Origin: Candidatus Nitrosopumilus koreensis AR1
GTDB lineage: Archaea > Thermoproteota > Nitrososphaeria > Nitrososphaerales > Nitrosopumilaceae
NCBI RefSeq assembly: GCF_000299365.1
Contig: NC_018655.1
Location: 780,001-812,000, forward strand
Direction: 5' to 3'
Length of the DNA stretch: 32,000 nt
Shown here: one piece after another, positions 3,398 to 26,353 of the stretch
Layout of the letters: the number at the start of each line of letters is the position of its first letter
How positions within the stretch are numbered: the first letter of the stretch is position 1
The notes under the pieces: generated by a model
What the model was told of the DNA's origin: nothing
Seen by the model: only the letters and a program-made list of their open reading frames with translations
The model's database searches: none
Position numbers and translations under genes: made by a program

Positions 3398-3400
3398 CAG

Positions 3401-9044: not shown

Positions 9045-9069
9045 ATACAAAAACAAAGTTAATTTTTGT

Positions 9070-9965: not shown

Positions 9966-10030
9966 TTTACAGGATACTCCGTACATAATGCCATGTTATA
10001 GGATCCGATCGTGAGCTCTTTTTGAGTAAA

Positions 10031-10054
10031 TTGATCGCAATTTTGATCGCAATT
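10031..10054. repeat. Perfect 12-bp tandem direct repeat TTGATCGCAATT x2 in the TrmB-1 upstream region
   Basis: Read directly: 10031-10042 and 10043-10054 are identical. It lies adjacent to the GC-rich GGATCCGATCGTGAGCTC at 10001-10018. Confidence 0.9.
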
Positions 10055-10074
10055 TAGGCACAAATTACTCAATC

Positions 10075-10620
10075 TCATTTTAAAAGACTCTCCACAAACA
10101 ATGGTTTTTCAAGTTTAGCTGGAACTGTGAACTCTGTTTTAAACTTGAATTTTTCTCGAACTTCTTTAGAGTTTTTTAGCAATGCAATTTCAAACTGTCC
10201 GCCATCTTCATAAACAATTGAATTTAGATTGTTCTTTAATCCTTTTGAAACAAGACCATCCAAAGTCTCTTTTGCAGATTGTAGTTTTTCTAATTTTATT
10301 TTTAGAGATTCAATCTCTTTAAAGTATAACTCCAATTCGCCTTTGATACCCATGCCATTATACAGATTTAATGAATTGTATTTTATCCAATTTGAAGAGG
10401 TTTGTTTTTTTGTCTTTTTTGTCTTTTTTTCATCTGATTTGTCTTCTAATTTTTCTTTAATGGATAAGAATTCCTTATCATTTTCTAATTCTTTTTCTTG
10501 AGATCTTAGCTTTTCACCAGCTATCTTTGAAATTTTTTCCAATTCTTTTTTTGTTTCAACAACATTATTTTCTAGATATGTTTTGAATTCATCAATTACA
10601 TTAAATTTAATTAAACTCAT
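10075..10620 (-). CDS. Hypothetical coiled-coil protein, last gene of the leftward pilin operon
   Basis: 181 aa with long heptad-like E/K-rich stretches and a KKTKKTKK linker. Its ATG (10618-10620) directly abuts the stop of the upstream gene (10621-10623). Confidence 0.6.
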   Translation of the reverse strand: MSLIKFNVIDEFKTYLENNVVETKKELEKISKIAGEKLRSQEKELENDKEFLSIKEKLEDKSDEKKTKKTKKQTSSNWIKYNSLNLYNGMGIKGELELYFKEIESLKIKLEKLQSAKETLDGLVSKGLKNNLNSIVYEDGGQFEIALLKNSKEVREKFKFKTEFTVPAKLEKPLFVESLLK

Positions 10621-11127
10621 TTAGATCACCGGTGTTTGATTTAATTCAAGTTGTCCAATATTTTCAATTTTCTTTAATTCATTATTTGCAGAACGCAAAA
10701 AGTTGATGCTGTTAAGTAATTTCAATTTATCTTTTCTTACTAATTCAACAATTTTTGGAGTAATGTAATCTAAAATGTTTATAATAATATCAGTTGAAAA
10801 ACTATCCATTGTTTTTTCTTCTGTTTTACTATTGGAATCAACAACAAGTATGTTAAGATTGGGTAATAATTTTATGTTGGTGTTTTCATCTAAATGTAAA
10901 ATATTAGAGGGTAATTCAATAGATAATCCCAAAAATTTAGTTATAACTTTTAATGAATTAATCAATTCATCAAGCGTGTTTACTCTTTGATTTTCTAATT
11001 CATAAATCTGTAAAGATTCCTGAATTAAAGATTCCATATATTGTAAGCTTGGGTGATCAGAATTACCTCCTGTTTCTGCAGTTGCTTGGTTTGCATTATT
11101 TTCAAGCGTACTATCCATAATGGTCAT
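10621..11127 (-). CDS. Hypothetical protein, pilin-operon member
   Basis: 168-codon ORF on the same strand, contiguous with the downstream gene. No signal peptide or known motif recognised. Confidence 0.58.
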   Translation of the reverse strand: MTIMDSTLENNANQATAETGGNSDHPSLQYMESLIQESLQIYELENQRVNTLDELINSLKVITKFLGLSIELPSNILHLDENTNIKLLPNLNILVVDSNSKTEEKTMDSFSTDIIINILDYITPKIVELVRKDKLKLLNSINFLRSANNELKKIENIGQLELNQTPVI

Positions 11128-11187
11128 GCAAAAAATATTCTTTTTTAGATAATATCCAAGTGTATGTGTGAAAATATTACATCCTGT

Positions 11188-13674
11188 CTAAGTGACTGTG
11201 GTGCCTCCGATGTCAATTGTCTTGAAAAATGTTCTTCCTAATTCATCATATCCGGACAGATAGACGTAAAAATTGTAATTTTCTCCAGGCGTAATAGGAG
11301 TTCCATATTGACCATTTATGGAAGGGTGAGTGGTAGGGGCATAGAACTCTATTGTGAATTTTTTTCCAGGAGGCAAATATATGCTATCATTAGTGTCTGA
11401 CATTTCAAATTCTGTACTAGTTCCATTTACAAATTGAGGCAGTGAAGCGTATGCAATATCTGATGTAACATCATCAAAAACTCCACGAATTCCACTCATT
11501 GAAAAAAATGCGCCTATGGTACCAGTATTGGATACTCTAACCAGATAATTTCCGCCATCCTCATTGATATCATATGAAAAATAACCCGGAAAAGTGTCAT
11601 CAGGTATAGGTATCTGAACAAAGGATGTGTCTGGGTTTCCATTGAGTGAGTCATCATCAATTCTAACATCTACTCCCAAACCACTAACAAAATCTACTGT
11701 AAATAATATGCGTTCATCAGTTAAACTGATCTGATTCATTGCACCAGTAAGATTTCCACTAGAATGAAAATTTGTCACATCATTAAGAGGATCAATAAAA
11801 TCCATTTCAATGTCTGTTTGTGAAAACAATGTTGTTTTACCTCCAGAATTATCGACTCTTTCGATTGTATAGTCTACCAAAAATGCACCATCTCCATATT
11901 TTGTATTGTTTAATGCCAGTACTTCACTAGAAGTTAATCCATATGATTCCCAATGCATTATAGAATCAATACTGCCTTTAAAATTCTCAGTAATTTGACC
12001 ATCTTGGGTATCAGGATTTGCTCCAATCATCCACTTAGTATCTATTTCTAGTTGCGAATTATTTGGATTACTTGTATCTTGTTGAGTTACAACAAAAGAT
12101 CCATCTAAATACAAAGTACATGTTTCAGAATCTACACGAATTCCAACAAAATGATGCCATTCATCAGTAGTTACTCCAGAGGTATTACAATCAAGTATTT
12201 TTCCTTCTGTAGAATCAAATCTAAATGACAATGTACCTGTTGTTCCAGATTTATCAAAAACAACCTCATAAAATTCAGAGCCAGGATTGGATTCTTCAGC
12301 CCGGATTATTACTTGCCGGCCATCATTTCCAGTACCATCTACATAAAACCAACCAGCAGTAGAGTTTGGGCCATCATCAAGATCATTACAAGAGGTATCA
12401 ATTCCTACTGAAATGTAATCATTATTCCCATCAAAAGTAAATCCTCCACTGGAAAATACACCACTAGAATCACTCCATGCAGGCGTGCTGGTACCTGAAC
12501 CAAGAGTGGCACTGATTTCATTATCACATGCAGCCCCAGTTACCCCATTAGAAAGAAAAGATTGTTTCTCAAAATGAAATATCATACCACTAGATAAAAT
12601 TGAATTATCTATAGTTGAATCAAGATGGGAATTAAGATAAGCTAAAGATGAAGTCCAAGTTCCAGAAGGTATTGTAACTGTACTTGTTTGGTTATTTGTA
12701 ATGTATGCCATGTTATTTTGATCAAGATCAACGGTAAACCCTGTGGCATCTGCGGTACCAGAGCTTAATTGATATTCGCCATTAGGGGTGTTTGTGGATT
12801 CTTGATGAATTGTAAGAATGTCAGGAGTGTTACTAGGAACTGTAAATCCAAGTGATTCCAAAGAAGTTCCAGCTTCTAATGCCAACAACACGTCTTTAAT
12901 TGTTATAGTTACAGATGAATCATTTCCAGGATATCCATTTACAATAGAACCAGTTATAGTTACAGATTCTGCGGCTGTACCTGAAATGACACAGGACCAT
13001 TTGAAGATTACAGATTCACCTTTTTTCAGAGAAGGGTACGATGCAGGAGTTGGCGAAGAATCACAAATTGCGGTTGCGGAACCTGATGGGGGAGACATCT
13101 CAGGGACAATGTTAAGTAAAGTAACATCATTTGGAAGGTCATTTGTAACAGTCATAAATAATGTTGTAGAAAATCCATTAGCAACGGTTTCAGGAGCTGC
13201 ATGTAAGTTAATAGATAAATTTTGATCAGGAACTGAATTGAAAAAATATGTTTCAGTATTTCCCCGATCAGTAACAAGGGATATTTTATACGCTTGAGTA
13301 TCAACTACAGAAAGCGGAAGGGTTTGTCCAATTCCGCTGACAGAATTTGAAGGAGATATGCTTTGATCAATATCAAATTTTGAAGGAATCCATGTTGAAT
13401 CAGTGGTATTTTCAATCCATAGTTTTGTTAATTTTATTGGAAGTTGGCCTTTGTTTTGAACTGTCAAATCAAATTTGTTGTTTGTAATGGTAGCATCAGA
13501 AATTTCAAAAGATTCAGAATTTCTTGCACCATCAACACTTTCTTTGATTATTACGGCTTGTGAAAAATCATCAATCACATTCATACTATATGACACATAT
13601 GCCACAGTGCTAGAAGCAGCAATTATAAAAAATACTGCACCCACCAGCGTACTTAATGCTCTACGATTTTTCAT
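11188..13674 (-). CDS. Giant (828 aa) type IV pilin-like protein with class III signal peptide, beta-sandwich modules and a LamG/concanavalin-A-like lectin domain
   Basis: The N-terminus MKNRRA|LSTLVGAVFFIIAASSTVAYV is basic, then Ala, then a hydrophobic helix. Residues about 395-595 (nt about 11890-12492) carry the Laminin_G_3 pattern: FTFDGNNDYISV ... TAGWFYVDG ... LSFRFDS ... WHHFVGIRVDSETCTLYLDGSFV. The ATG overlaps the upstream pilin gene by 4 nt. Confidence 0.8.
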   Translation of the reverse strand: MKNRRALSTLVGAVFFIIAASSTVAYVSYSMNVIDDFSQAVIIKESVDGARNSESFEISDATITNNKFDLTVQNKGQLPIKLTKLWIENTTDSTWIPSKFDIDQSISPSNSVSGIGQTLPLSVVDTQAYKISLVTDRGNTETYFFNSVPDQNLSINLHAAPETVANGFSTTLFMTVTNDLPNDVTLLNIVPEMSPPSGSATAICDSSPTPASYPSLKKGESVIFKWSCVISGTAAESVTITGSIVNGYPGNDSSVTITIKDVLLALEAGTSLESLGFTVPSNTPDILTIHQESTNTPNGEYQLSSGTADATGFTVDLDQNNMAYITNNQTSTVTIPSGTWTSSLAYLNSHLDSTIDNSILSSGMIFHFEKQSFLSNGVTGAACDNEISATLGSGTSTPAWSDSSGVFSSGGFTFDGNNDYISVGIDTSCNDLDDGPNSTAGWFYVDGTGNDGRQVIIRAEESNPGSEFYEVVFDKSGTTGTLSFRFDSTEGKILDCNTSGVTTDEWHHFVGIRVDSETCTLYLDGSFVVTQQDTSNPNNSQLEIDTKWMIGANPDTQDGQITENFKGSIDSIMHWESYGLTSSEVLALNNTKYGDGAFLVDYTIERVDNSGGKTTLFSQTDIEMDFIDPLNDVTNFHSSGNLTGAMNQISLTDERILFTVDFVSGLGVDVRIDDDSLNGNPDTSFVQIPIPDDTFPGYFSYDINEDGGNYLVRVSNTGTIGAFFSMSGIRGVFDDVTSDIAYASLPQFVNGTSTEFEMSDTNDSIYLPPGKKFTIEFYAPTTHPSINGQYGTPITPGENYNFYVYLSGYDELGRTFFKTIDIGGTTVT

Positions 13675-14123
13675 GGACTCACCTGGGTTCTGAATTGATT
13701 ATCTCTAGCACTTTTGATCAAAATATCAAATTCAACATCATCAATCCAAGCATAAGTCATGTTTATTGAATAAGATTCAGAAGGGCTCATTCCTCCATCA
13801 TCAATTAACACTGAACTAATTTTTTCAAATGTTGTTGAGTTAATAAATTGAATATTTGTTACATTTAATCCAACATTTCCAGTATTAGTCATGGTTACAT
13901 TGACATATTTAGAAGGATTTGTTCCAAACCATATTTTTTCAAATATAATGTGCTCATTTAGTTTATTGATATTTTTTGAAAAAGTATTTTCAAGATTTTT
14001 TTGATGAGACAATAAATTAGAATTGGACCATCCGACCAAACCCGCGCCAAGAATTGCAATAGATGATAATAGAATGGCACTAGTGACAATAGAAGCTAAG
14101 GCTCTCCTACGAACAAATTTCAT
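13671..14123 (-). CDS. Type IV pilin-like protein (150 aa, class III signal peptide)
   Basis: The N-terminus MKFVRRRA|LASIVTSAILLSSIAILGAGLV is followed by a small beta-rich domain (VNVTMTNTGNVGLNVTNIQFI). A TATA-like CAATATAC (plus 14147-14154) ends about 24 nt upstream of the ATG. Confidence 0.75.
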   Translation of the reverse strand: MKFVRRRALASIVTSAILLSSIAILGAGLVGWSNSNLLSHQKNLENTFSKNINKLNEHIIFEKIWFGTNPSKYVNVTMTNTGNVGLNVTNIQFINSTTFEKISSVLIDDGGMSPSESYSINMTYAWIDDVEFDILIKSARDNQFRTQVSP

Positions 14124-14184
14124 TAAGTAATTTCATGAAAAATTAGGTATATTGCTCAGTATGTAATAAAATCTAACTTACATT

Positions 14185-14823
14185 TTATGATGATGCAGAC
14201 TCGTTAATTTTCTTATTTAAAACGGAATTGATGGTATCTATTTTTTGTTTTAATTCATCAGAAGGGTTTTCTGAATGTTGATTGCTAAGATCAATTTGCA
14301 GTTTTGTTAATTCCTCTGTAGACATTTGATCAAATTCAGAATCTGCCGATTTTATTTCATCTGAATATGTTACTTCTTTTTCATTTGTTGATTCCTCTGT
14401 TTGTTCTTTTACATCTTCAGAAATTGACTCTAATTCTGAAGAGTGTTCTGTTTGTTCAGAAAGATCCATTGTTTTGCTAATCTCATATGGTGGACATGGG
14501 ATTTTCATGCTCTTAGTTAGCATGAACAACACAGGGTATAATTCCTGATAAGACATGCGTAAAATTTGAGGGATGTTTTGTTCATCTTTTTGATATAATG
14601 ATTCTAATTCTGAAGAATTTCCGTTAACGTCAATTTTTCCTTCCAAGCTTAGACGAATCCCTTTAGGTGCAGAGCTAAAGGTATAGCCATATTGTAATTG
14701 ACAAGAGTTTTCAGCACTGGAAACCTCGTTTAATGACACATCAATGTCATATTTTTTAAAATCTGTTTTCTCTTTGACATTATTATTTACATTGAATGAT
14801 TCAATGTCCAAATTGAACTGCAT
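14185..14823 (-). CDS. Hypothetical protein with acidic C-terminal half
   Basis: 212-codon ORF with no signal peptide. The C-terminal half is rich in E/S/D (SEQTEHSSELESISEDVKEQTEESTNEKE). It is divergent from the AAA/vWA operon across only 67 nt. Confidence 0.6.
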   Translation of the reverse strand: MQFNLDIESFNVNNNVKEKTDFKKYDIDVSLNEVSSAENSCQLQYGYTFSSAPKGIRLSLEGKIDVNGNSSELESLYQKDEQNIPQILRMSYQELYPVLFMLTKSMKIPCPPYEISKTMDLSEQTEHSSELESISEDVKEQTEESTNEKEVTYSDEIKSADSEFDQMSTEELTKLQIDLSNQHSENPSDELKQKIDTINSVLNKKINESASS

Positions 14824-14890
14824 TTGAAAGTAGAATCAAAAATTGTGTATTAACAAAGTGTCTGTCATTTCAAGTTACATCATTTCGAAT

Positions 14891-15928
14891 ATGAGCAATA
14901 ATAATGATTTAAAAATAATGCAAATAGAGGATTTTGCCCAAAAGAACACTGTAAAGAAGAAAAATTTTAATTTAAATTTTACAATTTCAAAAGCTCCCAA
15001 AAAAGCCAAGAAATTAGATTTACATCAAGATATTTCAAATTATCTGGACAAAAATCAGTATTCATTTAGTGAAGATATGCAAGAGATGATTCCAAAAGAC
15101 ACTCCTCCATATTTGGATAATGGGGAAAAGTATGTAGAAAGAATTGCAAGAGCTTTAAAGTTTTTTAAACAATGTTCTTTGATTGGCCCCAGCGGAACTG
15201 GAAAAACACACATTGTTTATTTGGTTGCTGAATTAGCAGGTCTGCCATTATGGGAAATTAATTGTGGATTACAAACATCTGTTTTTGATCTTTTTGGAAG
15301 ATATGTAGGATTGGGAAAAGAGAACTGGATTGATGGATTGATTGTAAACTGGTGTAGAGATGGAGGAATATTGTATCTTGATGAGGCAAACATGATGAAA
15401 CAAGATGTTGCAACACGATTAAACCCTATTCTTGATCAGAGAGGACATCTTGTGTTAACAGAAAAAGATAATGAACTTATCCATAGACACGAACATGCAT
15501 ATCTGATAATCAGCATGAATCCTTTTTCATCAGAATTTGCAGGAACAAAGCCACTCAATGCTGCAATGAGAAGAAGGATGAGCGTTTGGTTAAATTTTGA
15601 TTACATGAGTGTGGGAGATAAAATTGATGAAAAAGAAATTGATCTTGTATGTCACAGAGCAAAAGTAAACAGAGACGATGCAGAAAAAATTGTCAAGATA
15701 GGTGCAAAACTAAGGCAAGAATATCAACAAGGTGATCTTCCATATGGTCCATCAGTTGGAGATTTGGCAAATTGGGCAAAAATTGTTGCAGATGGAACAA
15801 CGGTGGAAATTGCAGCAGAAGAGACAATCATAGCATTAACTGCAGATGATTTTGAGGTTCAAGAAGAAGTTCGTGCAATTGTAAAACGAGTTTGCGGAGG
15901 AGATAAGTTTGAAAGAAAATTTGTATGA
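14891..15928 (+). CDS. AAA_5 (MoxR/CbbQ/NorQ-type) ATPase
   Basis: Walker A LIGPSGTGKTHIVYLVAE, Walker B GGILYLDEANMM, and LIISMNPFSSEFAGTKPLNAAMRRRM (sensor/Arg-finger region) are typical of dynein-related AAA_5 ATPases. The ORF opens at TTG 14843, but the ATG at 14891 (MSNNND) is preferred. Confidence 0.85.
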   Translation: MSNNNDLKIMQIEDFAQKNTVKKKNFNLNFTISKAPKKAKKLDLHQDISNYLDKNQYSFSEDMQEMIPKDTPPYLDNGEKYVERIARALKFFKQCSLIGPSGTGKTHIVYLVAELAGLPLWEINCGLQTSVFDLFGRYVGLGKENWIDGLIVNWCRDGGILYLDEANMMKQDVATRLNPILDQRGHLVLTEKDNELIHRHEHAYLIISMNPFSSEFAGTKPLNAAMRRRMSVWLNFDYMSVGDKIDEKEIDLVCHRAKVNRDDAEKIVKIGAKLRQEYQQGDLPYGPSVGDLANWAKIVADGTTVEIAAEETIIALTADDFEVQEEVRAIVKRVCGGDKFERKFV

Positions 15929-17471
15929 TCTATCTGCAAACATCATCTATGAAGTAGCAGACAAAGAAAAAACAAGCATTGAAGTAACAATGCCTGAAAA
16001 ATTATCTTTTTTAGAACTAAAGTACGGAAAACCCACACAAATATCCCTTCCAAAACCAAAAAAAAGTGATGAAAAATGTCTCTATCAAGGCATTCTGTTT
16101 GATAGTATAGATGACTCGTATTCTACAGTGTGGTCTTTGTTTTTAGCATCATTGTATCACTCTGGAGGCCATGCTGCAGTTTCAGATTATTCAGTATATC
16201 AAAAATGGTATCAGAGAAAATCCCCAATCTTAGCATCTCAAGCAATTAAATTTGTGGAAGACATCAGAGTTCAGGAATATCTAAAAACCAGATATTCAAA
16301 TCCTTTAAAAAATATTGAAATGATTAAATTTTCTTGTGAATTGTTGTACAACAAATTTTTGAAAAACATCCTAGAGTCAAATGAAAAAAATAGAACACAG
16401 CATGCATTTAGAAATAAAATAGAACACTTCAGAAATGAAGTAAAAGAATCTATAACAAATAATGACACTCCTGAAAACAGGATTAAACTTGCAGATGAAA
16501 TTTACAAAAACAGATATGCTTTAGGAATGTGGGAATATCCATTTTGCGACAACATCAAACCAACAAACTTTACAAAATATTTGAAATATTTGAAATTAAA
16601 TCCTACTGGAGAATTCAGACACTATGCTAACGAATTAGGCAATATGTGGATAGACGAAATTAAAAAAGAAGAAAAAATGATGGAAAAATACAAAAAATAT
16701 TCTGAAGGATTACGTTTTGACAAAATCAAACTAGCACCAGAAAATCTTGGAAAATTTTTTCAGTTGAGAGTAGATAGTACAAATTTTATTAAAAAAATTA
16801 GAAGTCAAGTATCGAATGTAACAAACTCCATGGAAGATCCAAATACTGAAGATTATGGTTACATTGAAATGCAAAAAGCAGTTCAGGCAGTTGCAAGTGA
16901 AAGTCAAGGAATTTCTTATTTTGAGCAAGATCAAGAACTTCGTTATGAGGAAAGCTGGGCAATAGTTATGGATACTAGTGCAAGTATGAAAATTCAGTTT
17001 CAGGATTTACAGAAATTTTTGATGTGTATTGCAGAAGCTGCAGACAAAATAAACTACAAGGGAGGAAAATGGTCCATACATGGTTTTAGCAATGATTTTG
17101 TGCTGATTAAAGATTTCAAAGAAAAGTATGATGACAGAATCAAGGCCAGGATAGGAGGAATGAACAGTTCAGGATTATCATTTGTTCCAGATGCCATGAA
17201 ATTGGCAACAAGAATGCTAGAAGACGACATCAATGAACGCAGATACTTGTTCCTAATTACCGATGGATACATGATGGGGTATCATGAAATTGACGAAGAG
17301 TTTCAATCTGCTATTAATCTGGCCTCCAAGGCAGGCGTAAATGTAATAGCAATAGGCGTACCTGATGGAATGTCAAAATATTTCACAGTTAGTTTCCCTC
17401 ATACTGAGATTAGAAAGACAGTTGCAAACTTTGTTCGCGCCTATACATCTGTGGCACAACAATACATGTAA
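15909..17471 (+). CDS. von Willebrand factor A (vWA) domain protein, NorD/CbbO-like architecture
   Basis: The C-terminal vWA domain has the MIDAS motif WAIVMDTSASMK (DxSxS) and ...LFLITDGYMMG.... There is a long helical N-terminal region and no signal peptide. The TTG start at 15909 is preceded by GGAGG (15896-15900) and overlaps the AAA gene by 20 nt. Confidence 0.8.
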   Translation: MKENLYDLSANIIYEVADKEKTSIEVTMPEKLSFLELKYGKPTQISLPKPKKSDEKCLYQGILFDSIDDSYSTVWSLFLASLYHSGGHAAVSDYSVYQKWYQRKSPILASQAIKFVEDIRVQEYLKTRYSNPLKNIEMIKFSCELLYNKFLKNILESNEKNRTQHAFRNKIEHFRNEVKESITNNDTPENRIKLADEIYKNRYALGMWEYPFCDNIKPTNFTKYLKYLKLNPTGEFRHYANELGNMWIDEIKKEEKMMEKYKKYSEGLRFDKIKLAPENLGKFFQLRVDSTNFIKKIRSQVSNVTNSMEDPNTEDYGYIEMQKAVQAVASESQGISYFEQDQELRYEESWAIVMDTSASMKIQFQDLQKFLMCIAEAADKINYKGGKWSIHGFSNDFVLIKDFKEKYDDRIKARIGGMNSSGLSFVPDAMKLATRMLEDDINERRYLFLITDGYMMGYHEIDEEFQSAINLASKAGVNVIAIGVPDGMSKYFTVSFPHTEIRKTVANFVRAYTSVAQQYM

Positions 17472-17492
17472 TTTCGAATTATTACATACTCT

Positions 17493-17500
17493 TTTAGATA
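17493..17500 (+). promoter_or_regulatory. TATA-like box (TTTAGATA) for the major pilin gene
   Basis: One mismatch from TTTATATA. It is centred about 29 nt upstream of the ATG at 17526, consistent with a leaderless transcript. Confidence 0.35.
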
Positions 17501-17525
17501 TTCTACAAAATAACCATATTTTTTA

Positions 17526-18155
17526 ATGAAAATGACCCCTCTACGAAATAATCGCAGAGCAATCAGTACAGTACTTACAACCATCATCATCTTGGTGGCT
17601 TCTGTTGTACTTGGTTCAGGTGTAGTTGTTTACGGCACATCACTTTTCCAAGGCGGTACACAACAAGAAGCAATTTCAGTCCAAGGTGTCCAGTTGTGGG
17701 TTAATGCTACTGATTCAAACGGCGTTGCATGGGGTGCTGCTGCTGTAAGAAACAGTGGTGACAAAATCTTGTCTACAGACAAGATAGAAGTCAGAGGTAC
17801 TAACGTTCCATTCTCAGCCTGGTATGTAGACACAGATCCAGACAGAGTAACGGTAGATAACTTCCAGGCACAATTCATTTCAACCGGAACTGTTTCAGGT
17901 CAAATGCAATCTACAGGTTCAACATGTGCATCTGCAGATCTTGAAATTGATCTGGATGATGCAGGTGCATTACCAGCATTATGTATGACCAAACAATCAG
18001 GTCCTGTTGGTTTGAATCCAGGTGACAGAATGATCATCTACTTCAAAGTTCCAGATGGAACTCTATCATCACTTGATGCAGGAGCAACATCTAGCTTGAA
18101 TATCTTCGCCGGAAAAACTGGTGCACCACAAAGTGTAACCATCGCAAATACTTAG
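17526..18155 (+). CDS. Type IV pilin (209 aa), candidate major pilin, class III signal peptide
   Basis: MKMTPLRNNRRA|ISTVLTTIIILVASVVLGSGVVVYGTSLF resembles Aap/Ups-type archaeal adhesive pilin N-termini and lacks the GIGTLI-type archaellin motif. The globular part is rich in G/T/S/A. The gene appears to have its own promoter and terminator. Confidence 0.8.
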   Translation: MKMTPLRNNRRAISTVLTTIIILVASVVLGSGVVVYGTSLFQGGTQQEAISVQGVQLWVNATDSNGVAWGAAAVRNSGDKILSTDKIEVRGTNVPFSAWYVDTDPDRVTVDNFQAQFISTGTVSGQMQSTGSTCASADLEIDLDDAGALPALCMTKQSGPVGLNPGDRMIIYFKVPDGTLSSLDAGATSSLNIFAGKTGAPQSVTIANT

Positions 18156-18198
18156 GATTCGGTGTTTTTTTAATGAATCCATTTTTTCCTTTTTCTTT
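18155..18198 (+). terminator. Hairpin plus oligo-T terminator/attenuator after the major pilin gene
   Basis: GGATTC (18155-18160) and GAATCC (18175-18180) form an inverted repeat flanking a T7 run (18165-18171). T6 (18182-18187) and T5 (18190-18194) follow. The next gene has its own GGTGA Shine-Dalgarno at 18200-18204. Confidence 0.45.
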
Positions 18199-18209
18199 AG
18201 GTGAAGTAA

Positions 18210-19739
18210 ATGAAGGATAAAACAAAGTCTGTAGAAACTTTTCTTAAAAGTGAGTTTTTTGATCCAAATCAAAAACAAGCTTCATCAGAATTAAAGATTA
18301 TAAAAAATTATGAACTGAATGCACCATACAGTTATGCAAATATTTTGTATAATGAAAAAAATTCCAGTTATGAATACCAAATTGATGAGATTAAATTAAA
18401 TCATGAAGAGCAAGAAATTTTTAACAAATTATACCAATTATTAGAGGAAAGCATAGACTCTGTAAAAAATGCAAAAGGAGATAATTTTGAAAGTTTTCTA
18501 AATACCATAATTGATGAAAATAAAAAATTATTTGAAAGATATCCTGTAGCAAGTTTGGAGAAAGTAAAATATTATCTTAGACGAGACATCTCAGGATTTG
18601 GAATCATTGATGGATTGATGTGGGATCCTAATATTGAGGATATCAGTTGTGCTGGAATCAATACTCCAATTTACATTTGGCACAGACAATACGACAGCAT
18701 CCCAACAAATATTCAATTTGAACCAAGTAATCTAAACAATTTTGTGTCTAGAATTGTATTTCGTGCAGGAAAACATGTTAGTTCTGCACATCCAATCACA
18801 GATTTAGCATTAGAAGGCAATCACAGAATCTCAGTTCTGTATCAAAAAGAGGTAACACCAAAAGGTACCAGTTTCACTATTAGAAAATTCAAAGAAGATC
18901 CATACACAATTGTTGATTTGATAGACTTTGAGACAATGGATACGTCAATGGCGGCATATCTATGGTTGTTAATGGAGGCAAAGATGTCCATAATGGTGAT
19001 TGGTTCAACAGGTAGTGGAAAAACTACCATTCTTAATGCAATAACTGGGTTGGTCAATCCAGATTACAAGATATTTTCAGTTGAAGATGTATCTGAAATT
19101 AACATAAAACATGAGAACTGGTTTAGTCTGATTTCAAGACCGGGTTTTGGAACACAAGGAGAGGGCGAAATTGGACTGTATGATTTGATAAAATCAGGAG
19201 TAAGACACAGACCAGATTACATTATAGTAGGAGAGATTAGAGGCTCTGAAGCTTATGTGATGTTTCAAGCAATGGCAACAGGTCATGGAGGATTGTGTAC
19301 AATGCATGCAGATAGTTTGATTTCTGCAACAAAAAGACTTCAACAAAAACCAATGGAGATTCCACCATCATACATGACTTTGATGAACTGTGCAATTGTG
19401 ATTAAACGAGTAAAAGACAATGAGACAAATCAAAGTACAAGAAAGATAGTTTCGATTGAAGAGATTAAAGACAGTAATTCATTTAATTCTGTTTTCAAAT
19501 GGAATGCAAAAAACAAAACATTTGATTCAGAGATTGAAAAAAGCGAGATGGTAAAAAGAATTGCAGAGTCACAAGGTCAAGCAGTTAATGAGTTAATTGA
19601 TGAATACAAAAAAAGAGTTTCAATTCTAAAATATCTCAAAGATCATAATATTCGAGACTATAAAGAGACAAGTGATTTTATTGGAAGATATTATAGAAAC
19701 CCAAATGAAATTCTAGAAAAAATTCATTATGAGGTGTAA
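18210..19739 (+). CDS. Type IV pilus/archaellum assembly ATPase (ArlI/FlaI, PilB/TadA superfamily, T2SSE domain)
   Basis: Walker A VIGSTGSGKTTILNAI, Asp/Walker B box RHRPDYIIVGEIRGSEA and His box ATGHGGLCTMHA. 509 aa with an N-terminal domain typical of FlaI-like ATPases. Confidence 0.92.
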   Translation: MKDKTKSVETFLKSEFFDPNQKQASSELKIIKNYELNAPYSYANILYNEKNSSYEYQIDEIKLNHEEQEIFNKLYQLLEESIDSVKNAKGDNFESFLNTIIDENKKLFERYPVASLEKVKYYLRRDISGFGIIDGLMWDPNIEDISCAGINTPIYIWHRQYDSIPTNIQFEPSNLNNFVSRIVFRAGKHVSSAHPITDLALEGNHRISVLYQKEVTPKGTSFTIRKFKEDPYTIVDLIDFETMDTSMAAYLWLLMEAKMSIMVIGSTGSGKTTILNAITGLVNPDYKIFSVEDVSEINIKHENWFSLISRPGFGTQGEGEIGLYDLIKSGVRHRPDYIIVGEIRGSEAYVMFQAMATGHGGLCTMHADSLISATKRLQQKPMEIPPSYMTLMNCAIVIKRVKDNETNQSTRKIVSIEEIKDSNSFNSVFKWNAKNKTFDSEIEKSEMVKRIAESQGQAVNELIDEYKKRVSILKYLKDHNIRDYKETSDFIGRYYRNPNEILEKIHYEV

Positions 19740-19742
19740 AAA

Positions 19743-21191
19743 CTGCTTTCACTGAAAGACAGTCAAAAGAAAATCGACAAAAAGGAAAAAACAAAACTAG
19801 AAAGAGAAATTCCTTATTTTATCACATTTGTTACATTATTAGCAACAAGTGGATTTGGACCATACACAATATTTGAAAAGATAAAAAATTTTGATATTTT
19901 GCCACATACACAGACTCAAGCAAAAAGAATACTGAAAAGAATAGAGATTTTGGGCATGGATCCAATATCGGCCATAACTCAAGCAAAAGACAAGACATCA
20001 TCAAAGACAATGTCAGATTTTCTTGGAGGTTATGTTTCAGCAATAGAGGGAGGAGGAGATGTAGTAAATTATCTAAAAAGCAAGATGAATGGAGCATTTG
20101 ACTCCTATGCTGAAACAGAAAAACAAAAGATCAGCAAAGTAAAGGCACTTGTAGAGTCATACATGACAATACAAATAGTAATTTTAGCAGTATACATTAT
20201 ATTTTCAGCAGTTGGTTCAGGTACAGACCCAACAGCATTAGCTCAGAATTCAGGTGACAACTCACAACTATTGTTGATTGTAATTCCGCCAATAATATCC
20301 GCAGCATTTATCTTTCTTGCAAGTAAAACAAATTCTTCATTCTTACCAGAAATGCCAGTAAAACAAATTGCAATGTACACAATTCCAATATGCAGTATTG
20401 GTTTTACAATTACATTATTGGGAATCATCAAAGAGTACAATGCATTTATCATGATGTTTTCTCTAGTGGCTGCAGCAGTATTTCCTGCAATGAAATTTAA
20501 AAGAACATATCAACGATCAATTGATGCTGAAAATGCTACTCCAAGAATAATGAGAGATATTGCTGAGTCAAGAAAAGCAGGAACTAGTCCAGAAAAATGT
20601 GTAATCCGGGCATGTAAAAGTAAAGATTACAAATTATTTACATCAACATCCAATACAATAGGAAGTAAATTGGAATGGGGCATACCATTTGATGATATTT
20701 TTAATTCATTGAAAAAAGAGATTAAAGATTTTCAAGTCTTGATTAATTTTAAGATCTTGTTTGAAATCATTTCAGGAGGAGGAGGAAACATCCATACACT
20801 GATATCTCTTGCAGATATTTCAGAAAAAATCCACAGCATTGAGAAAACAAAACGCAGTTTACTTAAACCATACATAATGATTGGATTCATTTTGATGGGC
20901 ATGACAGGATTAACAACATTACTGGTAATTGATTCACTTGCAAGCATAGGAATTCAGTCTGAAACAGATTCTGAAAGGATTGCATTAATGGAGAAAAATT
21001 CACAAGAAAGTTTTGAAATGTATTCAATTGTCATTCTGATTCAAGGATGGTTAGCAGGCATATTCTTAGGAAAAGTAGTCACAGGCACATATTCAGGAGG
21101 ATTCCAATACTCAATAATTTTGGTGTTGATTGCGTTTGGAAGCATCATGCTTATTCAGAGTTCAATTGTAAGCATTGGCGCCCTGTTCTAG
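19743..21191 (+). CDS. Type IV pilus platform membrane protein (ArlJ/FlaJ, TadC family, two T2SSF-like domains); start codon unresolved
   Basis: Polytopic membrane protein with duplicated motifs (RILKRIEILGMDPISAI...GGGDVVNYL and RDIAESRKAGTSPEKCV...GGGGNIHTLI). The listed ORF starts at TTG 19899. However, 53 upstream in-frame sense codons (19740-19898) encode ...REIPYFITFVTLLATSGFGPYTIFEKI..., which belongs to the domain. No ATG, GTG or TTG occurs in that stretch, so the start given here (CTG 19743) is provisional. Confidence 0.82.
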   Translation: MLSLKDSQKKIDKKEKTKLEREIPYFITFVTLLATSGFGPYTIFEKIKNFDILPHTQTQAKRILKRIEILGMDPISAITQAKDKTSSKTMSDFLGGYVSAIEGGGDVVNYLKSKMNGAFDSYAETEKQKISKVKALVESYMTIQIVILAVYIIFSAVGSGTDPTALAQNSGDNSQLLLIVIPPIISAAFIFLASKTNSSFLPEMPVKQIAMYTIPICSIGFTITLLGIIKEYNAFIMMFSLVAAAVFPAMKFKRTYQRSIDAENATPRIMRDIAESRKAGTSPEKCVIRACKSKDYKLFTSTSNTIGSKLEWGIPFDDIFNSLKKEIKDFQVLINFKILFEIISGGGGNIHTLISLADISEKIHSIEKTKRSLLKPYIMIGFILMGMTGLTTLLVIDSLASIGIQSETDSERIALMEKNSQESFEMYSIVILIQGWLAGIFLGKVVTGTYSGGFQYSIILVLIAFGSIMLIQSSIVSIGALF

Positions 21192-21250
21192 TATGTATTG
21201 TTTAGAGTCATACTGCTCGATATATCCAATTTGAGCCCAAAATCAACACA

Positions 21251-23863
21251 TTGAAGACTGTCTTAGTGATACTTTTAGTTCTAGTTGTGGTTGGAGGAGG
21301 AGTACCAATAGATGCCCAATCCAATTTTGGAGTACAGAATCCATTTGATAAACAACCTGACTTGGAATTTGGATATCAATTACATCCACAAAAATTCTTG
21401 GAAAATACAGAAGGCATAATCAACATACATGCATTAAACAATGAAAACATTTTACCAGTTGAGATAAACGGATTAAAAGTATCTAGTTCAGACAACACAA
21501 TAGTAGCAATTACAGGAATCAGTAATGCAGAAAACTATTCGACAGAAATCAAAATATTGGCAAAAGAACCAGGTTTTGCAAACATATCTCTTGCAGCACC
21601 AGGATTCAAATCACAAGAAATTCCAATAGTTATCTACAACAACAACAATCATCCAACCCAAATATTACTAAAAACAACTCCAAATGATTTTCCAGTAGAT
21701 GGCCCAAAATTTGGATATATCGGAATTGAGCTTGCAACTACAGGCAATTTACCCGTAATTGCAACAGAAGACACCATTGTAAAAATTTCCACTCCAAATA
21801 CAAATGTGATAAAATTACAAGAGTCAGAGATTACAATACCAAAAGGAGAATATTATACACTGACAAAATTCAACATAAAAGAATCAGGAGATGCAATTAT
21901 ATTTGCAGAAACAGAAGGGATGAAAAAAGTTAGCCAATTCATCCATGTCAGGGAAGCAAAAACACCGTTACAATTACAACTATATGTTTTTCCAAAAAAT
22001 TTCAATAGCTTTTCATCACAAACAGGCTATGCAATTGTTCAATTACAAGATGCTGAAGGAATACCTGTAAAAGCAGACAAGAATATTAATTTGAAAATAG
22101 GAGTAGAAAACCCAGATTCAGGAATTAATACCAGTCATGATTTTGAAGAATTTTTGTTTGCGTCAAATGAATTAGAGATAAAAGAAGGAAGTTATTCCAC
22201 ATTTAGTAGTTTTTCAATAAGACCAAATGTTGCAGATTTTACAGATGAATTTGTGCAATCATACAATTTTTACATTATAGCAGATGATCATATCGCAAAA
22301 GGGGATTCTATTACAGTTACACATGATGAAATAGGAGCCATAGAAGGAAAGGGTCCAGCAATAACACAAACACTCCCATTTTTAACAACAGGTGAAAAAG
22401 AGCTTGTAGGAGTAACATATTTTGAAACAGAAGTTGAGGTTTCAAGACAGTTAGGAACAAGTACATTAGGCAAGACAGATAGAGAAACAGTTACAGTTTC
22501 AGTACCCGTAGTAGCAAGTGAAGATCTTTTTGTCAATGTTGCATCATCAAACTTGAAAACGGTGGATGCAGAAAATGCGTTTATTCCAAAGGGGAAAAAT
22601 ACTGGTTTGATTTTTGGAAATACTGGAACAATGATTCCAGATGAAGGAGAATCTCTTGAATTCTATATTACTGATAACAAGAAATCTTCAACAGTTGCAG
22701 GAGAACCAAACGGTCCATTGGAAGATGATCTTTCGTTAATTGTAGAGCCACTTATTCCAAAGATTCTTGCATATTCACAATTTCCAATAATTGGGTATCT
22801 GTTAGAAAGTCCTGAAGAGGATGAGGAAGTTACAACTGCAGATGATGAGGAAGAAGAGGAAGACGGACGAATAGGAGTTACTCATTTTATCAAAGATTCA
22901 GTCATGACATTTAGTGCTAATGAGAATTTTGAGATTCCACCAGAAGTGATAACACAAAATCAAGAGTATGCTGTAATTTTTGGTCAATCAAATAAGATAG
23001 GTACTAGCAGCATGACAGTTCAAGCCACAGGTATGGAAACAGGATTAAGTTTAGAGAGTCACACTACAGATCCAACCAACATAGAGTTATCCGTATCTAA
23101 GAACATCCTTCCCATGACCAAAAACTTGGCATCAATCCAGCTTTTAGACTCTGTTGGGAATCCTGCATATGCTAAAAACCAAATCACATTAGAGATCGTA
23201 TCAAATAATCAATATTCTTTGAAATTACCTGAGAATATAGTAATTGAAAAAGGGGAATATTTCAAATCATTTGAGATAGAATCATTTTCAGAAGGCACTA
23301 CAGAAATCACTATGTTAGCAGAAGACTTGCCAATGCATAATTTTGAATTAACTGTTAATGGATTTCATCCCGAAATATCACTAGTTGCGCCTAACTCAAT
23401 TGATCAAGGTACACAAATAACTGCAGAGTTGTTATTAGATTATCCAACATCAACATTATCTGTAGAAAATTTTGATGTAAATTGGAATGTTATTGGCGGA
23501 AAAATAATTGAACAAGAAACCACAACAGATAGTGACGGAAAAGCTAGAATCACAATAGATGAAATCAAATCAGAGAGTCTAGAGATTTATGCATCAGTTG
23601 AAGGATTAGGATTTACAAATCTAGAAATAAATAAAACAATCAAAGTTATTCCTGCTCCCATCACAGATGCAGTAACTGAAGAAACAAATAATGAAATATT
23701 TACTGAAAATAATTTCATATTGTTTGCAATTCCAGGTGCAGCAGGAGCTGCATTCTTTTATCTAAGAAAAACAAATCGCTTAGAAGAGATCACAGAAAGA
23801 TTTAACATATCTGAGAAAATTGAAGAGATAAAAGAAAGAGTTTCAAGCATTAGAGAAAGGTAA
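21251..23863 (+). CDS. Large secreted, C-terminally membrane-anchored surface protein with repeated Ig-like (Big_2-like) modules and an acidic linker
   Basis: TTG start. Sec-type signal MKTVLVILLVLVVVGGGVPIDAQS. Recurring module ends (EPGFANISLAAPGF, GDAIIFAETEGM, GTSSMTVQATGM, GTTEITMLAEDL, ESLEIYASVEGLG). Acidic tract EEDEEVTTADDEEEEEDG at about nt 22810-22870. C-terminal helix FILFAIPGAAGAAFFYL followed by RK. Confidence 0.7.
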   Translation: MKTVLVILLVLVVVGGGVPIDAQSNFGVQNPFDKQPDLEFGYQLHPQKFLENTEGIINIHALNNENILPVEINGLKVSSSDNTIVAITGISNAENYSTEIKILAKEPGFANISLAAPGFKSQEIPIVIYNNNNHPTQILLKTTPNDFPVDGPKFGYIGIELATTGNLPVIATEDTIVKISTPNTNVIKLQESEITIPKGEYYTLTKFNIKESGDAIIFAETEGMKKVSQFIHVREAKTPLQLQLYVFPKNFNSFSSQTGYAIVQLQDAEGIPVKADKNINLKIGVENPDSGINTSHDFEEFLFASNELEIKEGSYSTFSSFSIRPNVADFTDEFVQSYNFYIIADDHIAKGDSITVTHDEIGAIEGKGPAITQTLPFLTTGEKELVGVTYFETEVEVSRQLGTSTLGKTDRETVTVSVPVVASEDLFVNVASSNLKTVDAENAFIPKGKNTGLIFGNTGTMIPDEGESLEFYITDNKKSSTVAGEPNGPLEDDLSLIVEPLIPKILAYSQFPIIGYLLESPEEDEEVTTADDEEEEEDGRIGVTHFIKDSVMTFSANENFEIPPEVITQNQEYAVIFGQSNKIGTSSMTVQATGMETGLSLESHTTDPTNIELSVSKNILPMTKNLASIQLLDSVGNPAYAKNQITLEIVSNNQYSLKLPENIVIEKGEYFKSFEIESFSEGTTEITMLAEDLPMHNFELTVNGFHPEISLVAPNSIDQGTQITAELLLDYPTSTLSVENFDVNWNVIGGKIIEQETTTDSDGKARITIDEIKSESLEIYASVEGLGFTNLEINKTIKVIPAPITDAVTEETNNEIFTENNFILFAIPGAAGAAFFYLRKTNRLEEITERFNISEKIEEIKERVSSIRER

Positions 23864-24106
23864 TTGAATCATTTGCTTGAATTTTGACATATGATGTGGA
23901 AAATGTTCTTTGGTTCTAGAATGTCTGGCAAGCATCACCAAAGAGATGAATCCTTCTGCAAACAAAGCAGTTCCTTCAATAGGCGAGACATGAATCAAAC
24001 CAAAATTTTGCACCAGAACAGTTCCAATAATTATAACAAGCACAACAGAATAGTAAATTGCGTATTTTTCAGTATCAGGATTATGGAATATCTTAAAAAT
24101 TTTCAT
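23843..24106 (-). CDS. Possible small (87 aa) membrane protein
   Basis: Internal ATG (24106) of the 191-codon ORF. MKIFKIFHNPDTEKYAIYYSVVLVIIIGTVLVQNFGLIHVSPIEGTALFAEGFISLVMLA suggests two hydrophobic helices. It overlaps the 3' end of the convergent 870-aa gene by 21 nt. Weak support. Confidence 0.3.
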   Translation of the reverse strand: MKIFKIFHNPDTEKYAIYYSVVLVIIIGTVLVQNFGLIHVSPIEGTALFAEGFISLVMLARHSRTKEHFPHHMSKFKQMIQLPFSNA

Positions 24107-24234
24107 AAGGTGAATTTTATTGGAAGATATTAAAATTTTGAGAGTGATAGAAAATTTGCATGCAAACAGTGAAAAATTTTTAATTTTTATAGAATATACG
24201 TGAAAACTCCCAATAATTTGAAGGTGATTTAGAT

Positions 24235-24930
24235 ATGGAAACAATTCCAGAGATTTTTTTGATAAGAATCGGTCTGGCATTAGGAATGCTTGCCATAGGA
24301 GGATTTTTTGATATTTGGAAAAGAGAAGTGCATGATTATCTTTGGATTGTTTTCGGAGTAGCAGGAGCAATATTACTAATTTTTGAACCAAATCAAACAG
24401 ATATAATTTACTCAACACTATTTGCGTTGATCATTGCGCCAATTTCTATACTAATTTGGAGAATGGGATTATTTGGCGGAGCAGATGCTTTTGCATTAAT
24501 TGCACTAGCAGTAATAGCGCCACAAATTACAATTAGTGGAAATATTGTTACACCATTTACGACGTTATCAAATGCTGCAGTATTATTCATAGTTCCATTA
24601 TTAGTAAATGCATTGAGAAATACAATTTCAAAAATTAGAGGAGAGAATATTTTTGAAGGATTTGATGAAACATTACCCAGAAAAATTCTAGCATCATTCT
24701 TAGGATATAGAGCAAAAAATCCAAAATATTGTTTTTCAATTGAGAAAAATGAAGGATCTGTTAAAAAAATAGCATTTTCATTTCACCATGCAGACAATGA
24801 AGAATTTTCAGAAAAACCAAACACATGGGTTACCCCTGGAATCCCATATCTGTTATTAATTATTGGAGGTTTCTTGATTCAATTAGGATATGGAGACATA
24901 ATTCTAATCGGTATGGGTATGGGGCCATAA
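24235..24930 (+). CDS. Prepilin/prearchaellin signal peptidase (peptidase A24, FlaK/PibD type)
   Basis: Polytopic membrane protein with both catalytic-Asp contexts (GGFFDIWKREVHD and LFGGADAFALIALAV). GGTGAT Shine-Dalgarno at 24223-24228, with a TTTTATAG box about 45 nt upstream. Confidence 0.85.
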   Translation: METIPEIFLIRIGLALGMLAIGGFFDIWKREVHDYLWIVFGVAGAILLIFEPNQTDIIYSTLFALIIAPISILIWRMGLFGGADAFALIALAVIAPQITISGNIVTPFTTLSNAAVLFIVPLLVNALRNTISKIRGENIFEGFDETLPRKILASFLGYRAKNPKYCFSIEKNEGSVKKIAFSFHHADNEEFSEKPNTWVTPGIPYLLLIIGGFLIQLGYGDIILIGMGMGP

Positions 24931-25003
24931 TTTTTCATATAATGTATCTGTAATGTGATAATACAGACACGGGCTTAAGACCACCATTCTGTATTAAAAA
25001 AAT

Positions 25004-25954: not shown

Positions 25955-26343
25955 TGAGCGACATAATAACTGCAAAAAAAGAACTTAGTATACTAATAAT
26001 TGATGACAATGAGCAGATTACAAAAATGATATCAACATTTTTGAGTCTAAATAGTCACAAATGCACAATTGCAAATCATGCACAAGATGGGCTAGAATAT
26101 ATCATCAAAAACGACTATGATGCAGTCATACTTGATCTCACCATGCCAGACATGGATGGATACGACATATTAGAAAAAATCAAAGAGTCAGACATACGAC
26201 ACAAAGTAATTGTTTTGACAGCATCAAATGTATCTCAAGAAAACATCAAAAAGATAAAACAGACAGGAACAAAAATTATTTTACAAAAACCAGTTGATAT
26301 TGATACCCTATTAGAAAAAATTTACCAAATTGTAGACGTGTAA
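25954..26343 (+). CDS. Stand-alone response-regulator receiver (CheY-like) protein
   Basis: ILIIDDNEQ ... DAVILDLTMPDMDGYDIL ... VIVLTAS ... KP are the canonical REC motifs, including the phospho-acceptor Asp in DLTMPD. There is no output domain. The ATG overlaps the TrmB stop (TAATG). Confidence 0.9.
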   Translation: MSDIITAKKELSILIIDDNEQITKMISTFLSLNSHKCTIANHAQDGLEYIIKNDYDAVILDLTMPDMDGYDILEKIKESDIRHKVIVLTASNVSQENIKKIKQTGTKIILQKPVDIDTLLEKIYQIVDV

Positions 26344-26353
26344 GGGATACAAC

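Follow-up and report, generated by a model that had tools for sequence, protein, structure and literature searches.

What kind of surface structure is encoded by a divergent block of pilus-related genes in the chromosome of "Candidatus Nitrosopumilus koreensis" AR1, and is it new? The block lies at positions 10075-24930 of a 32-kb stretch of DNA (NC_018655, positions 780001-812000), to which we refer as the window and whose numbering is used below unless chromosomal positions are indicated. It contains 12 long open reading frames (ORFs) split into two divergent arms, the minus-strand arm with h212, pil150, a pilin of 828 amino acids, h168 and h181, and the plus-strand arm with MoxR, vWA, pil209, ATPase, TadC, surface protein and A24 peptidase genes. 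The products comprise three prepilins, a T2SSE ATPase, a TadC/T2SSF platform, an A24 peptidase, a MoxR-vWA pair, a large immunoglobulin (Ig)-rich surface protein and three small cytoplasmic proteins. Pfam and NCBIfam searches of the window proteins between 7065 and 27439 bore out the T2SSE, T2SSF, Peptidase_A24 plus Arc_PepC_II, AAA_5/CbbQ_C, VWA and Laminin_G_3 domains. The block is a real and complete type IV pilus (T4P) cluster, and we consider it quite likely to be a thaumarchaeal subclade 4A, Aap-related, adhesion-type T4P system of AR1. The core of a first-pass annotation of this DNA, which had proposed a type IV pilus, probably adhesive, and not an archaellum, is supported by the parts present, by the clade of the ATPase and by the failure of archaellum models.

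The pilins were found in a FlaFind-style scan of all ORFs of at least 60 amino acids in the window, with the pattern [KRDE][GA][ALIFQMVED][ILMVTAS] within the first 45 amino acids, followed by 20 residues with a mean Kyte-Doolittle hydropathy above 1.6. The output consisted of exactly three proteins of the window, pil209 (MKMTPLRNNRRA/ISTVLT), pil150 (MKFVRRRA/LASIVT) and the 828-amino-acid pilin (MKNRRA/LSTLVG; the slash marks the putative processing site). These are the same three N-termini that had been quoted in the first-pass annotation, all of them correctly, and all three pass as class III signals. The basic leader, A or G at position -1, I, L or M at position +1 and the hydrophobic helix were kept in 54, 36 and 35 Nitrosopumilaceae orthologues. 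This conservation, added to the fact that no other protein of the window matched, indicates that the prepilin observation is real and not a chance pattern.

We infer that pil209 (17526-18155, plus strand; arCOG03871) is the major subunit, because its mature N-terminal helix is nearly invariant while its central loop is hypervariable (28 orthologues), its gene sits directly upstream of the ATPase gene and has a conserved palindrome of its own (see below), and a T-rich tract follows directly downstream. The best match of the pil209 profile in the PDB was AapB from the Aap pilus of S. acidocaldarius (8Q30), with a marginal E-value of 0.0018 obtained mostly over the N-terminal helix; T4P pilins of S. 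islandicus and S. solfataricus came next with weaker E-values. The NCBIfam UpsA model was matched by pil209 with an E-value of 2.6e-8, below its cut-off. The candidate minor pilin pil150 (13671-14123, minus strand; arCOG01824, a FlaF/FlaG/pilin family) has a profile that matched a T4P pilin of P. calidifontis (PDB 8FK7) over its full length (E 9e-6), and its stop codon overlaps the start of the 828-amino-acid pilin gene by 4 nucleotides (nt).

The 828-amino-acid protein (11188-13674, minus strand) is a modular pilin composed of a class III signal, a pilin moiety and a variable C-terminal part. It carries a Laminin_G_3/ConA-like domain at residues 415-585 (51.5 bits), and for this reason it is called here the LamG pilin, and its residues 5-141 matched 8FK7 only weakly (E 0.013). 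The N-terminal portion of about 260 amino acids is kept in 35 of 35 orthologues and the C-terminal part in about half of them, a pattern expected of an adhesin with exchanged binding modules. Similar architectures are found in the modular minor pilins of Streptococcus sanguinis, PilB with a vWA module and PilC with Ig and ConA-like lectin modules (PMC9934059). PilC is part of a tip complex that also contains a small minor pilin, and the LamG pilin gene overlaps a small pilin gene. The S. sanguinis proteins are bacterial, the likeness concerns architecture only and is an analogy, and the vWA domain of the window belongs to a cytoplasmic protein and not to a pilin.

The assembly machinery is equally recognizable. 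The pilus assembly ATPase (18210-19739, plus strand; gi 407462477; arCOG01817), a member of the T2SSE/VirB11 superfamily, matched PF00437 T2SSE with 125.7 bits and has a Walker A motif, GSTGSGKT, at residue 265 that is conserved in 80 loci. It scored 355.6 bits against the non-archaellar GspE of A. fulgidus (2OAP) versus 230 bits against FlaI of S. acidocaldarius. The peptidase (24235-24930, plus strand; arCOG02298) is an A24 prepilin/class III signal peptidase of the PibD/FlaK type, in a form with five transmembrane (TM) segments, with matches to PF01478 Peptidase_A24 and PF06847 Arc_PepC_II and with D26, R30 and GGAD84 invariant in 47 orthologues. Thus, the ATPase, the TadC-type platform and the peptidase with both Asp motifs, which had been recognized from the letters, were all borne out by domain searches and by the invariant Asp residues.

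The TadC/T2SSF platform gene (19743-21191, plus strand; arCOG01808) directly follows the stop codon of the ATPase gene and deserves a separate comment on its start. The annotated start is TTG 19899, and no ATG, GTG or TTG occurs between the ATPase stop and this codon. Over the 52 codons that precede it the frame is open and its product conserved, with the segment ELPYFITxVTLLATSGFGPY, and the annotated short form is devoid of ELPYFIT. Orthologues begin with M(L/I/S)S(L/F)K directly behind the ATPase stop, and at this codon AR1 has CTG 19743, with GAGGTG six bases upstream. The match to PF00482 T2SSF covers profile positions 2-120 with 46.5 bits when translation begins at 19743, and positions 35-120 in the short form. 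Since the orthologue starts align at CTG 19743, the GAGGTG lies upstream and the T2SSF match extends with the long form, the start is probably CTG 19743 and the annotation about 52 residues too short.

To which branch of the T4P family does this machinery belong? The ATPase could be placed with a published tree that contains this very protein. In the Newick tree published by Makarova, Koonin and Albers (2016; PMC4858521), gi 407462477 falls together with AR2, Nitrosoarchaeum MY1 and N. gargensis (support 0.997). The sister (0.892) of this thaumarchaeal group is a Sulfolobales clade that holds S. acidocaldarius gi 70608025. The other clade-4 ATPase of S. acidocaldarius, gi 70607238, is found in the Ups/Bas group, and the text of that paper puts Aap in 4A and Ups in 4I. 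With gi 70607238 in the Ups/Bas group and Aap assigned to 4A, the sister clade is, by elimination, that of the Aap ATPase.

The same study shows that the locus is not new. Table S4 of Makarova et al. (2016; PMC4858521) already lists it as a T4P system of AR1, with coordinates that exceed the window positions by 780000 at each of the 15 ORF ends in common, the annotated start alone differing in three genes; matching examples are 793671..794123, 794185..794823, 795909..797471, 797526..798155, 798210..799739, 801251..803863 and 804235..804930. The arCOG numbers given here are those of that table, in which arCOG00441 is named GvpN/MoxR, arCOG02900 vWFA and arCOG03871 pilin, the surface protein arCOG11936 is flagged "subclade_4A" and a response regulator/histidine kinase pair is listed with the locus. 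The authors noted the vWA/MoxR link and the associated surface protein, and left arCOG05517 (h212), arCOG11534 (h168) and arCOG11968 (h181) as "uncharacterized". The window locus is therefore one of their thaumarchaeal subclade 4A loci, with the same coordinates, arCOGs, vWA and GvpN/MoxR pair and arCOG11936 protein. Nothing essential differs from their listing, except that the LamG pilin is missing there and TadC is about 52 residues short. The RefSeq annotation behind Table S4 has, in place of the LamG pilin gene, a 240-nt ORF on the opposite strand (792986..793225, window 12986-13225), although the long ORF of the LamG pilin is unbroken and conserved, with 70% identity in the orthologous locus L001. 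Abby et al. (2020; PMC7554672) further recognized four T4P types in ammonia oxidizers, namely the archaellum, an Ups/Bas-related pilus and "two other adhesion-like pili". The novelty implied by the first-pass annotation consequently does not hold, and what we add to the catalogued locus is the LamG pilin, the predicted SecB-like fold, the TadC start and the palindrome. Table S4 also lists a second, different T4P locus of AR1 (NC_018655, about 874-883 kb), with a Zn-ribbon protein (arCOG06883), three pilin-family genes, an ATPase and a split TadC.

In a scan of one genome per species, 125 relatives of the ATPase were found. The best of them, from a Nitrosarchaeum metagenome-assembled genome, has 85% identity and the rest about 60-69% over most of the protein. 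They belong to Nitrosarchaeum, Nitrosopumilus, Nitrosotenuis and Nitrosotalea, including the chromosome of Nitrosotalea devanaterra. In every locus with enough flanking sequence, the block of 13 genes is syntenic from h181 through the surface protein, usually together with the peptidase and a TrmB gene, and only local inversions were observed. Being kept across genera of Nitrosopumilaceae, the block is a family-wide system and not a strain-specific island. Its absence has been reported for N. maritimus SCM1, a model strain. Svalbard marine sediment from a depth of 78 m was the source of the AR enrichment cultures (PMC4010524), which contradicts the "planktonic-type" genome assumed earlier.

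How might the genes of the block be coordinated? An inverted repeat of the form TGTA(A)-N9-15-(T)TACA occurs upstream of h168 (11161-11181, TGTA-N13-TACA), pil150 (14162-14182, TGTAA-N11-TTACA), pil209 (17467-17486, TGTAA-N10-TTACA) and the right-hand TrmB gene (24943-24965, TGTA-N15-TACA, with TGTAA-N7-ATACA nested in it), and a degenerate copy lies at about 14860-14880 between h212 and MoxR. The exact form TGTAA-N7-13-TTACA was found 4 times in the window versus 0.55 expected. We also counted palindromes within 110-120 nt upstream of each gene in the orthologous loci, where the background is 3% per 110-nt window. Upstream of pil209 the palindrome was present in 31 of 46 and 32 of 47 loci in two counts, 56-64 nt before the ATG and in four genera. 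It was also recovered upstream of h168 (28/30 loci, mostly 50-58 nt before the start), h212 (30/36), the right-hand TrmB gene (23/40), pil150 (14-15 of 35-36) and the left-hand TrmB gene (7/33). For pil209, pil150 and h168 the palindrome usually starts 50-67 nt before the start codon. It was nearly absent from the same interval upstream of the large pilin (0/35), vWA (0/39), response regulator (0/25), histidine kinase (0/14), ATPase (1/65), TadC (1/76) and A24 peptidase (1/47) genes.

Palindromes upstream of at least five genes mean that the locus is not just two operons: the "two-operon" layout of the first-pass annotation gives way to more than two transcription units, with conserved promoter-proximal palindromes. 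The palindrome is a shared candidate operator for a pilus regulon, to which the TrmB-family proteins encoded on either side probably bind. As it also occurs in the upstream region of a TrmB gene itself, the simplest reading would be that one flanking TrmB regulator is autoregulated. Scans of the locus for bacterial sigma-70 promoters and intrinsic terminators revealed no enrichment over shuffled sequences; these models are not applicable to archaea.

The MoxR-class AAA+ ATPase (14918-15928, plus strand; arCOG00441), of the CbbQ/NorQ/midasin type, matched AAA_5 with 72.9 bits and CbbQ_C with 49.6 bits and has the Walker A motif GPSGTGKT. Its PDB matches were midasin (195 bits), CbbQ (88.6), NorQ (83) and CobS (39), all of which work with vWA/MIDAS partners. 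The adjacent vWA protein (15909-17471, plus strand; arCOG02900), with its VWA domain at residues 352-485, retains an intact MIDAS, D355-x-S357-x-S359 and the downstream TDG being kept at 95% or more in 24 orthologues. Its N-terminal 350 residues had no match, and a PDB sequence search with the vWA protein was empty. The two genes overlap and the vWA domain is C-terminal, what fits the architecture of a MoxR AAA+/vWA-MIDAS pair. In this respect, the pair resembles CbbQ-CbbO (the Rubisco activase), NorQ-NorD, CobS-CobT and midasin; it differs from them in being embedded in a pilus locus, always with the gene of a predicted SecB-like protein beside it. The start of MoxR is ambiguous. The frame is open from TTG 14843, with ATG 14891 and the annotated ATG 14918 as further candidates, and the divergent gap shared with h212 measures 19 to 94 nt accordingly.

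That neighbouring gene is h212 (14185-14823, minus strand; arCOG05517), which in the orthologous loci is always found between or beside the MoxR and vWA genes, even where MoxR is inverted. Such an inversion occurs in one Nitrosopumilaceae subgroup (orthologous loci L044, L055, L059, L060, L066 and L070); the MoxR gene there has about 90 additional codons, and h212 points in the same direction as vWA. The adjacency of MoxR, vWA and h212 despite the inversion supports a functional module. An AlphaFold2 model of h212 (one model, from a shallow alignment of 24 sequences) has a pLDDT of 76-89 over residues 21-110, with four strands and, after them, helices. In a Foldseek search of the PDB, the 20 best matches of this model were all SecB or SecB-like (E-values from 7e-4, probability about 1.0, TM-score about 0.5), including SecB (1ozb, 1fx3 and 1qyn), the unannotated streptococcal structures 2o2a and 2hng and the SecB-like chaperone Rv1957 (5mtw). 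A profile search of 1.84 billion representatives returned 105 clusters only, with Pfam SecB in none of 51 distant members. Comparison by hhalign with E. coli SecB gave a probability of 0.2%, and a PDB search with the h212 profile was empty. The model thus predicts that h212 has a SecB-like fold, and nothing more, in an N-terminal domain followed by a variable acidic linker and conserved C-terminal helices.

The two remaining cytoplasmic proteins are h168 (10621-11127, minus strand; arCOG11534), which is syntenic in the orthologous loci, and h181 (10075-10620, minus strand; arCOG11968), syntenic in about 30 loci with 30-41% identity. Neither of them, nor h212, had a meaningful Pfam or NCBIfam match, even at E-values up to 10. 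The earlier count of five co-oriented genes of no recognizable function on the minus strand was thus accurate for these three, while the other two are the pilins themselves. AlphaFold2 predicted for h168 a long helix, four short strands and another long helix, with a pLDDT of 75 in one model and 45-58 in the other four. A prefoldin-like topology was considered for h168 and discarded, since it was a visual impression only, the models were inconsistent and Foldseek returned no significant match, the best one being a prefoldin subunit with an E-value of 0.5.

The surface protein (21251-23863, plus strand; arCOG11936), with 870 amino acids, is syntenic in 49 loci. It has hydrophobic segments at both ends, attributable to a Sec-type signal peptide and a C-terminal membrane anchor, with Ig-like repeats between them. 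Big_1 was matched with 26.4 bits, below the cut-off of 34.9, and a PDB sequence search revealed nothing meaningful. With this subthreshold match included, the MoxR/vWA pair, the LamG pilin and the Ig-repeat protein named in the first-pass annotation are all present.

How close, then, is the locus to Aap? The Aap pilus of S. acidocaldarius functions in adhesion and twitching, and the two systems have ATPases of sister clades, ATPase and platform genes side by side, a small beta-sandwich pilin with a class III signal (the major subunit in Aap, the candidate major subunit here) and one further pilin. The window locus differs by the addition of MoxR, vWA, the predicted SecB-like protein, h168, h181, the LamG pilin and the Ig-rich protein, and by a peptidase encoded within the locus. 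AapX, in turn, has been described as part of the aap cluster. The earlier statement that the block does not match Aap was hence right for the accessory genes, with AapX missing and MoxR/vWA, LamG and Ig proteins in excess, but not for the ATPase, sister to the Aap clade; the best PDB match of the pil209 profile, a marginal one, is AapB.

Several observations weigh against the assignment to an Aap-related adhesion pilus. No AapX (Fe-S/oxidoreductase-type) domain was found in the proteins scanned, between 7065 and 27439. The match of pil209 to AapB is marginal and owed mostly to the N-terminal helix, pil150 has been assigned to the FlaF arCOG and the best NCBIfam model of the ATPase is FlaI, although below the cut-off. 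The TadC gene is devoid of ATG, GTG or TTG at the conserved start, and its expression in AR1 could be poor. The SecB-like assignment of h212 comes from one AlphaFold model, with Foldseek E-values of about 1e-3 against an hhalign probability of 0.2%, and any role given to MoxR/vWA, h168, h181 or the Ig protein is a matter of inference. Finally, the AR1 genome paper (PMC4010524) makes no mention of pili, and in the literature we found no experiment on a member of this system, and hence no demonstrated filament, cleavage or adhesion for AR1 or any orthologue.

Four other explanations were considered, which become progressively weaker in the order in which they are discussed here. The locus might build a bindosome-like or pseudopilus structure, short and membrane-proximal, which would expose the LamG pilin together with the Ig-rich protein at the cell surface to capture substrates or particles, without forming a long adhesive filament. 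The large binding-type proteins of the locus would suit such a structure, and so would matches to the NCBIfam models BasE (262 bits, cut-off 1000) and BasF (68 bits), both of them below the cut-off; moreover, machineries of type IV filaments "functionalised" to scavenge substrates have been proposed in a 2026 preprint. Nevertheless, in the published tree the ATPase goes with the Aap clade (4A) and not with Ups/Bas (4I), the FlaFind-style scan revealed no substrate-binding proteins with a class III signal in the locus, and pil209 has the hallmarks of a major subunit, with its invariant N-terminal helix and hypervariable loop. We regard this explanation as improbable. A locus that is decaying or poorly functional in AR1, with the pilus unassembled after loss of the canonical TadC start, is a slightly weaker candidate and in our view also improbable. 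The absence of an ATG, GTG or TTG before TTG 19899 and the loss of the conserved ELPYFIT from the annotated short TadC are what this explanation would predict, but the upstream codons remain open and conserved, the CTG at the orthologous start is preceded by GAGGTG, the long form recovers the full T2SSF domain and all other genes of the block are intact.

An Ups-like pilus for cell aggregation and DNA exchange seems very improbable. It draws on the weak matches of all three pilins to UpsA (at most 34 bits, cut-off 130) and on UpsF being the best NCBIfam model for TadC (85 bits, cut-off 400), but it is another thaumarchaeal ATPase group (AR2 gi 407465042, N. gargensis and Cenarchaeum) that sits with Ups/Bas in the published tree, and the Ups/Bas-related pilus is kept apart from the adhesion-like pili by Abby et al. 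(2020; PMC7554672). As for an archaellum, or a rotary motility apparatus derived from one, its chances are close to nil. The ATPase, the platform, the peptidase and the subunits with class III signals do belong to the same superfamilies as those of archaella, FlaI is the best NCBIfam model of the ATPase (355.5 bits), pil150, a member of the FlaF arCOG, has a match to a "flagellar-like" pilin, and a KaiC-like ATPase is encoded nearby. All the archaellum models, however, scored below their cut-offs: FlaI with 355.5 versus 550 bits, ArlJ with at most 43 versus 550 bits for TadC (the cut-offs of the ArlJ models ranging from 400 to 570), ArlF with 16.5 versus 110 bits for pil150 and ArlH with 26 versus 215 bits for the KaiC-like ATPase, a score by which the identification of this neighbour as ArlH was ruled out. 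No archaellin, ArlG, ArlX or ArlCDE was present among the proteins scanned, in agreement with the earlier remark that ArlF/G/C/D/E-like genes are missing. None of the three pilins matched archaellin (ArlB) models, even at E-values up to 10 for pil150 and pil209, Table S4 lists no archaellin for AR1, and the ATPase falls in clade 4 and not in clade 3. With the model cut-offs unmet and these components missing, the archaellum reading was rejected.

In the adhesion-type pilus that we favour, the A24 peptidase would cut the prepilins after the RRA leader, and an ATPase hexamer on the TadC platform would polymerize pil209 as the major subunit. The other two pilins, pil150 and the LamG pilin, could act as minor subunits that prime assembly and, located at the tip, would present a lectin-type module with a lineage-variable C-terminal part. 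The membrane-anchored Ig-rich protein of 870 amino acids may be a cell-surface partner, serving as an anchor, a collar or a second adhesin. In the cytoplasm, MoxR, vWA and the predicted SecB-like h212 might form a chaperone or remodelling device for pilins or for the machinery itself. Expression would be coordinated by the TGTAA-N-TTACA operator upstream of pil209, pil150, h168, h212 and the flanking TrmB gene, most likely bound by TrmB, and the KaiC-like ATPase and the two-component pair may supply further inputs. A more specific proposal, which we put forward with considerable doubt, is that MoxR, vWA and h212, perhaps with h168 and h181, are a dedicated chaperone/remodelling module of the pilus, and that the whole locus is one regulon controlled through a TrmB-bound operator. 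Neither the role of the module nor the operator has been described previously. If the proposal is true, the module could hold and deliver a very large modular pilin, or drive disassembly or retraction in a system without PilT.

The block is flanked on each side by a TrmB-family transcription regulator. The one on the left (9120-9986, minus strand; Pfam TrmB, 48 bits) is conserved at the edge of the locus, and in many orthologous loci a TrmB gene is adjoined by the gene of the KaiC-like ATPase, a single-domain protein (8307-9056, minus strand; Pfam KaiC, 192 bits) that is a conserved neighbour and a candidate regulator. In the 88-nt spacer upstream of the left TrmB gene, a tandem direct repeat is present, two copies of TTGATCGCAATTT at 10030-10055; GATCGCAA is found nowhere else in the window. 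The TrmB gene on the right (25004-25954, plus strand; Pfam TrmB, 55 bits), also syntenic, is followed by a response regulator receiver protein and a histidine kinase (25954-27439, plus strand) with Response_reg, HisKA and HATPase_c domains, syntenic in Nitrosopumilus and Nitrosarchaeum loci. Between the surface-protein and peptidase genes there is a gap of 371 nt with an ORF on the opposite strand (23843-24418, minus strand), annotated in RefSeq as a hypothetical protein with two TM segments (803843..804244). Besides the gap, the ORF takes in the end of the surface-protein gene and, when its long form is considered, also the start of the peptidase gene; it may be spurious, and the promoter of the peptidase gene may lie in the gap instead. 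Transfer RNA and Rfam scans of the window revealed a single RNA gene, tRNA-Phe (GAA) at 3400-3474 (minus strand), far from the locus and unrelated to it, and N-glycosylation sequons showed no clear enrichment in secreted compared with cytoplasmic proteins.

Ammonia-oxidizing archaea rank with the most abundant microbes on Earth, and their attachment to particles, sediments and biofilms is poorly understood. For a locus that was already catalogued, the value lies in the details, that is, a lectin-bearing modular pilin, a MoxR/vWA/SecB-like module that is so far predicted, and a candidate shared operator with which the regulon could be mapped. Kept across Nitrosopumilaceae from sediment, soil, groundwater and freshwater, the block is a plausible marker, and a plausible effector, of a surface-attached lifestyle in this family.

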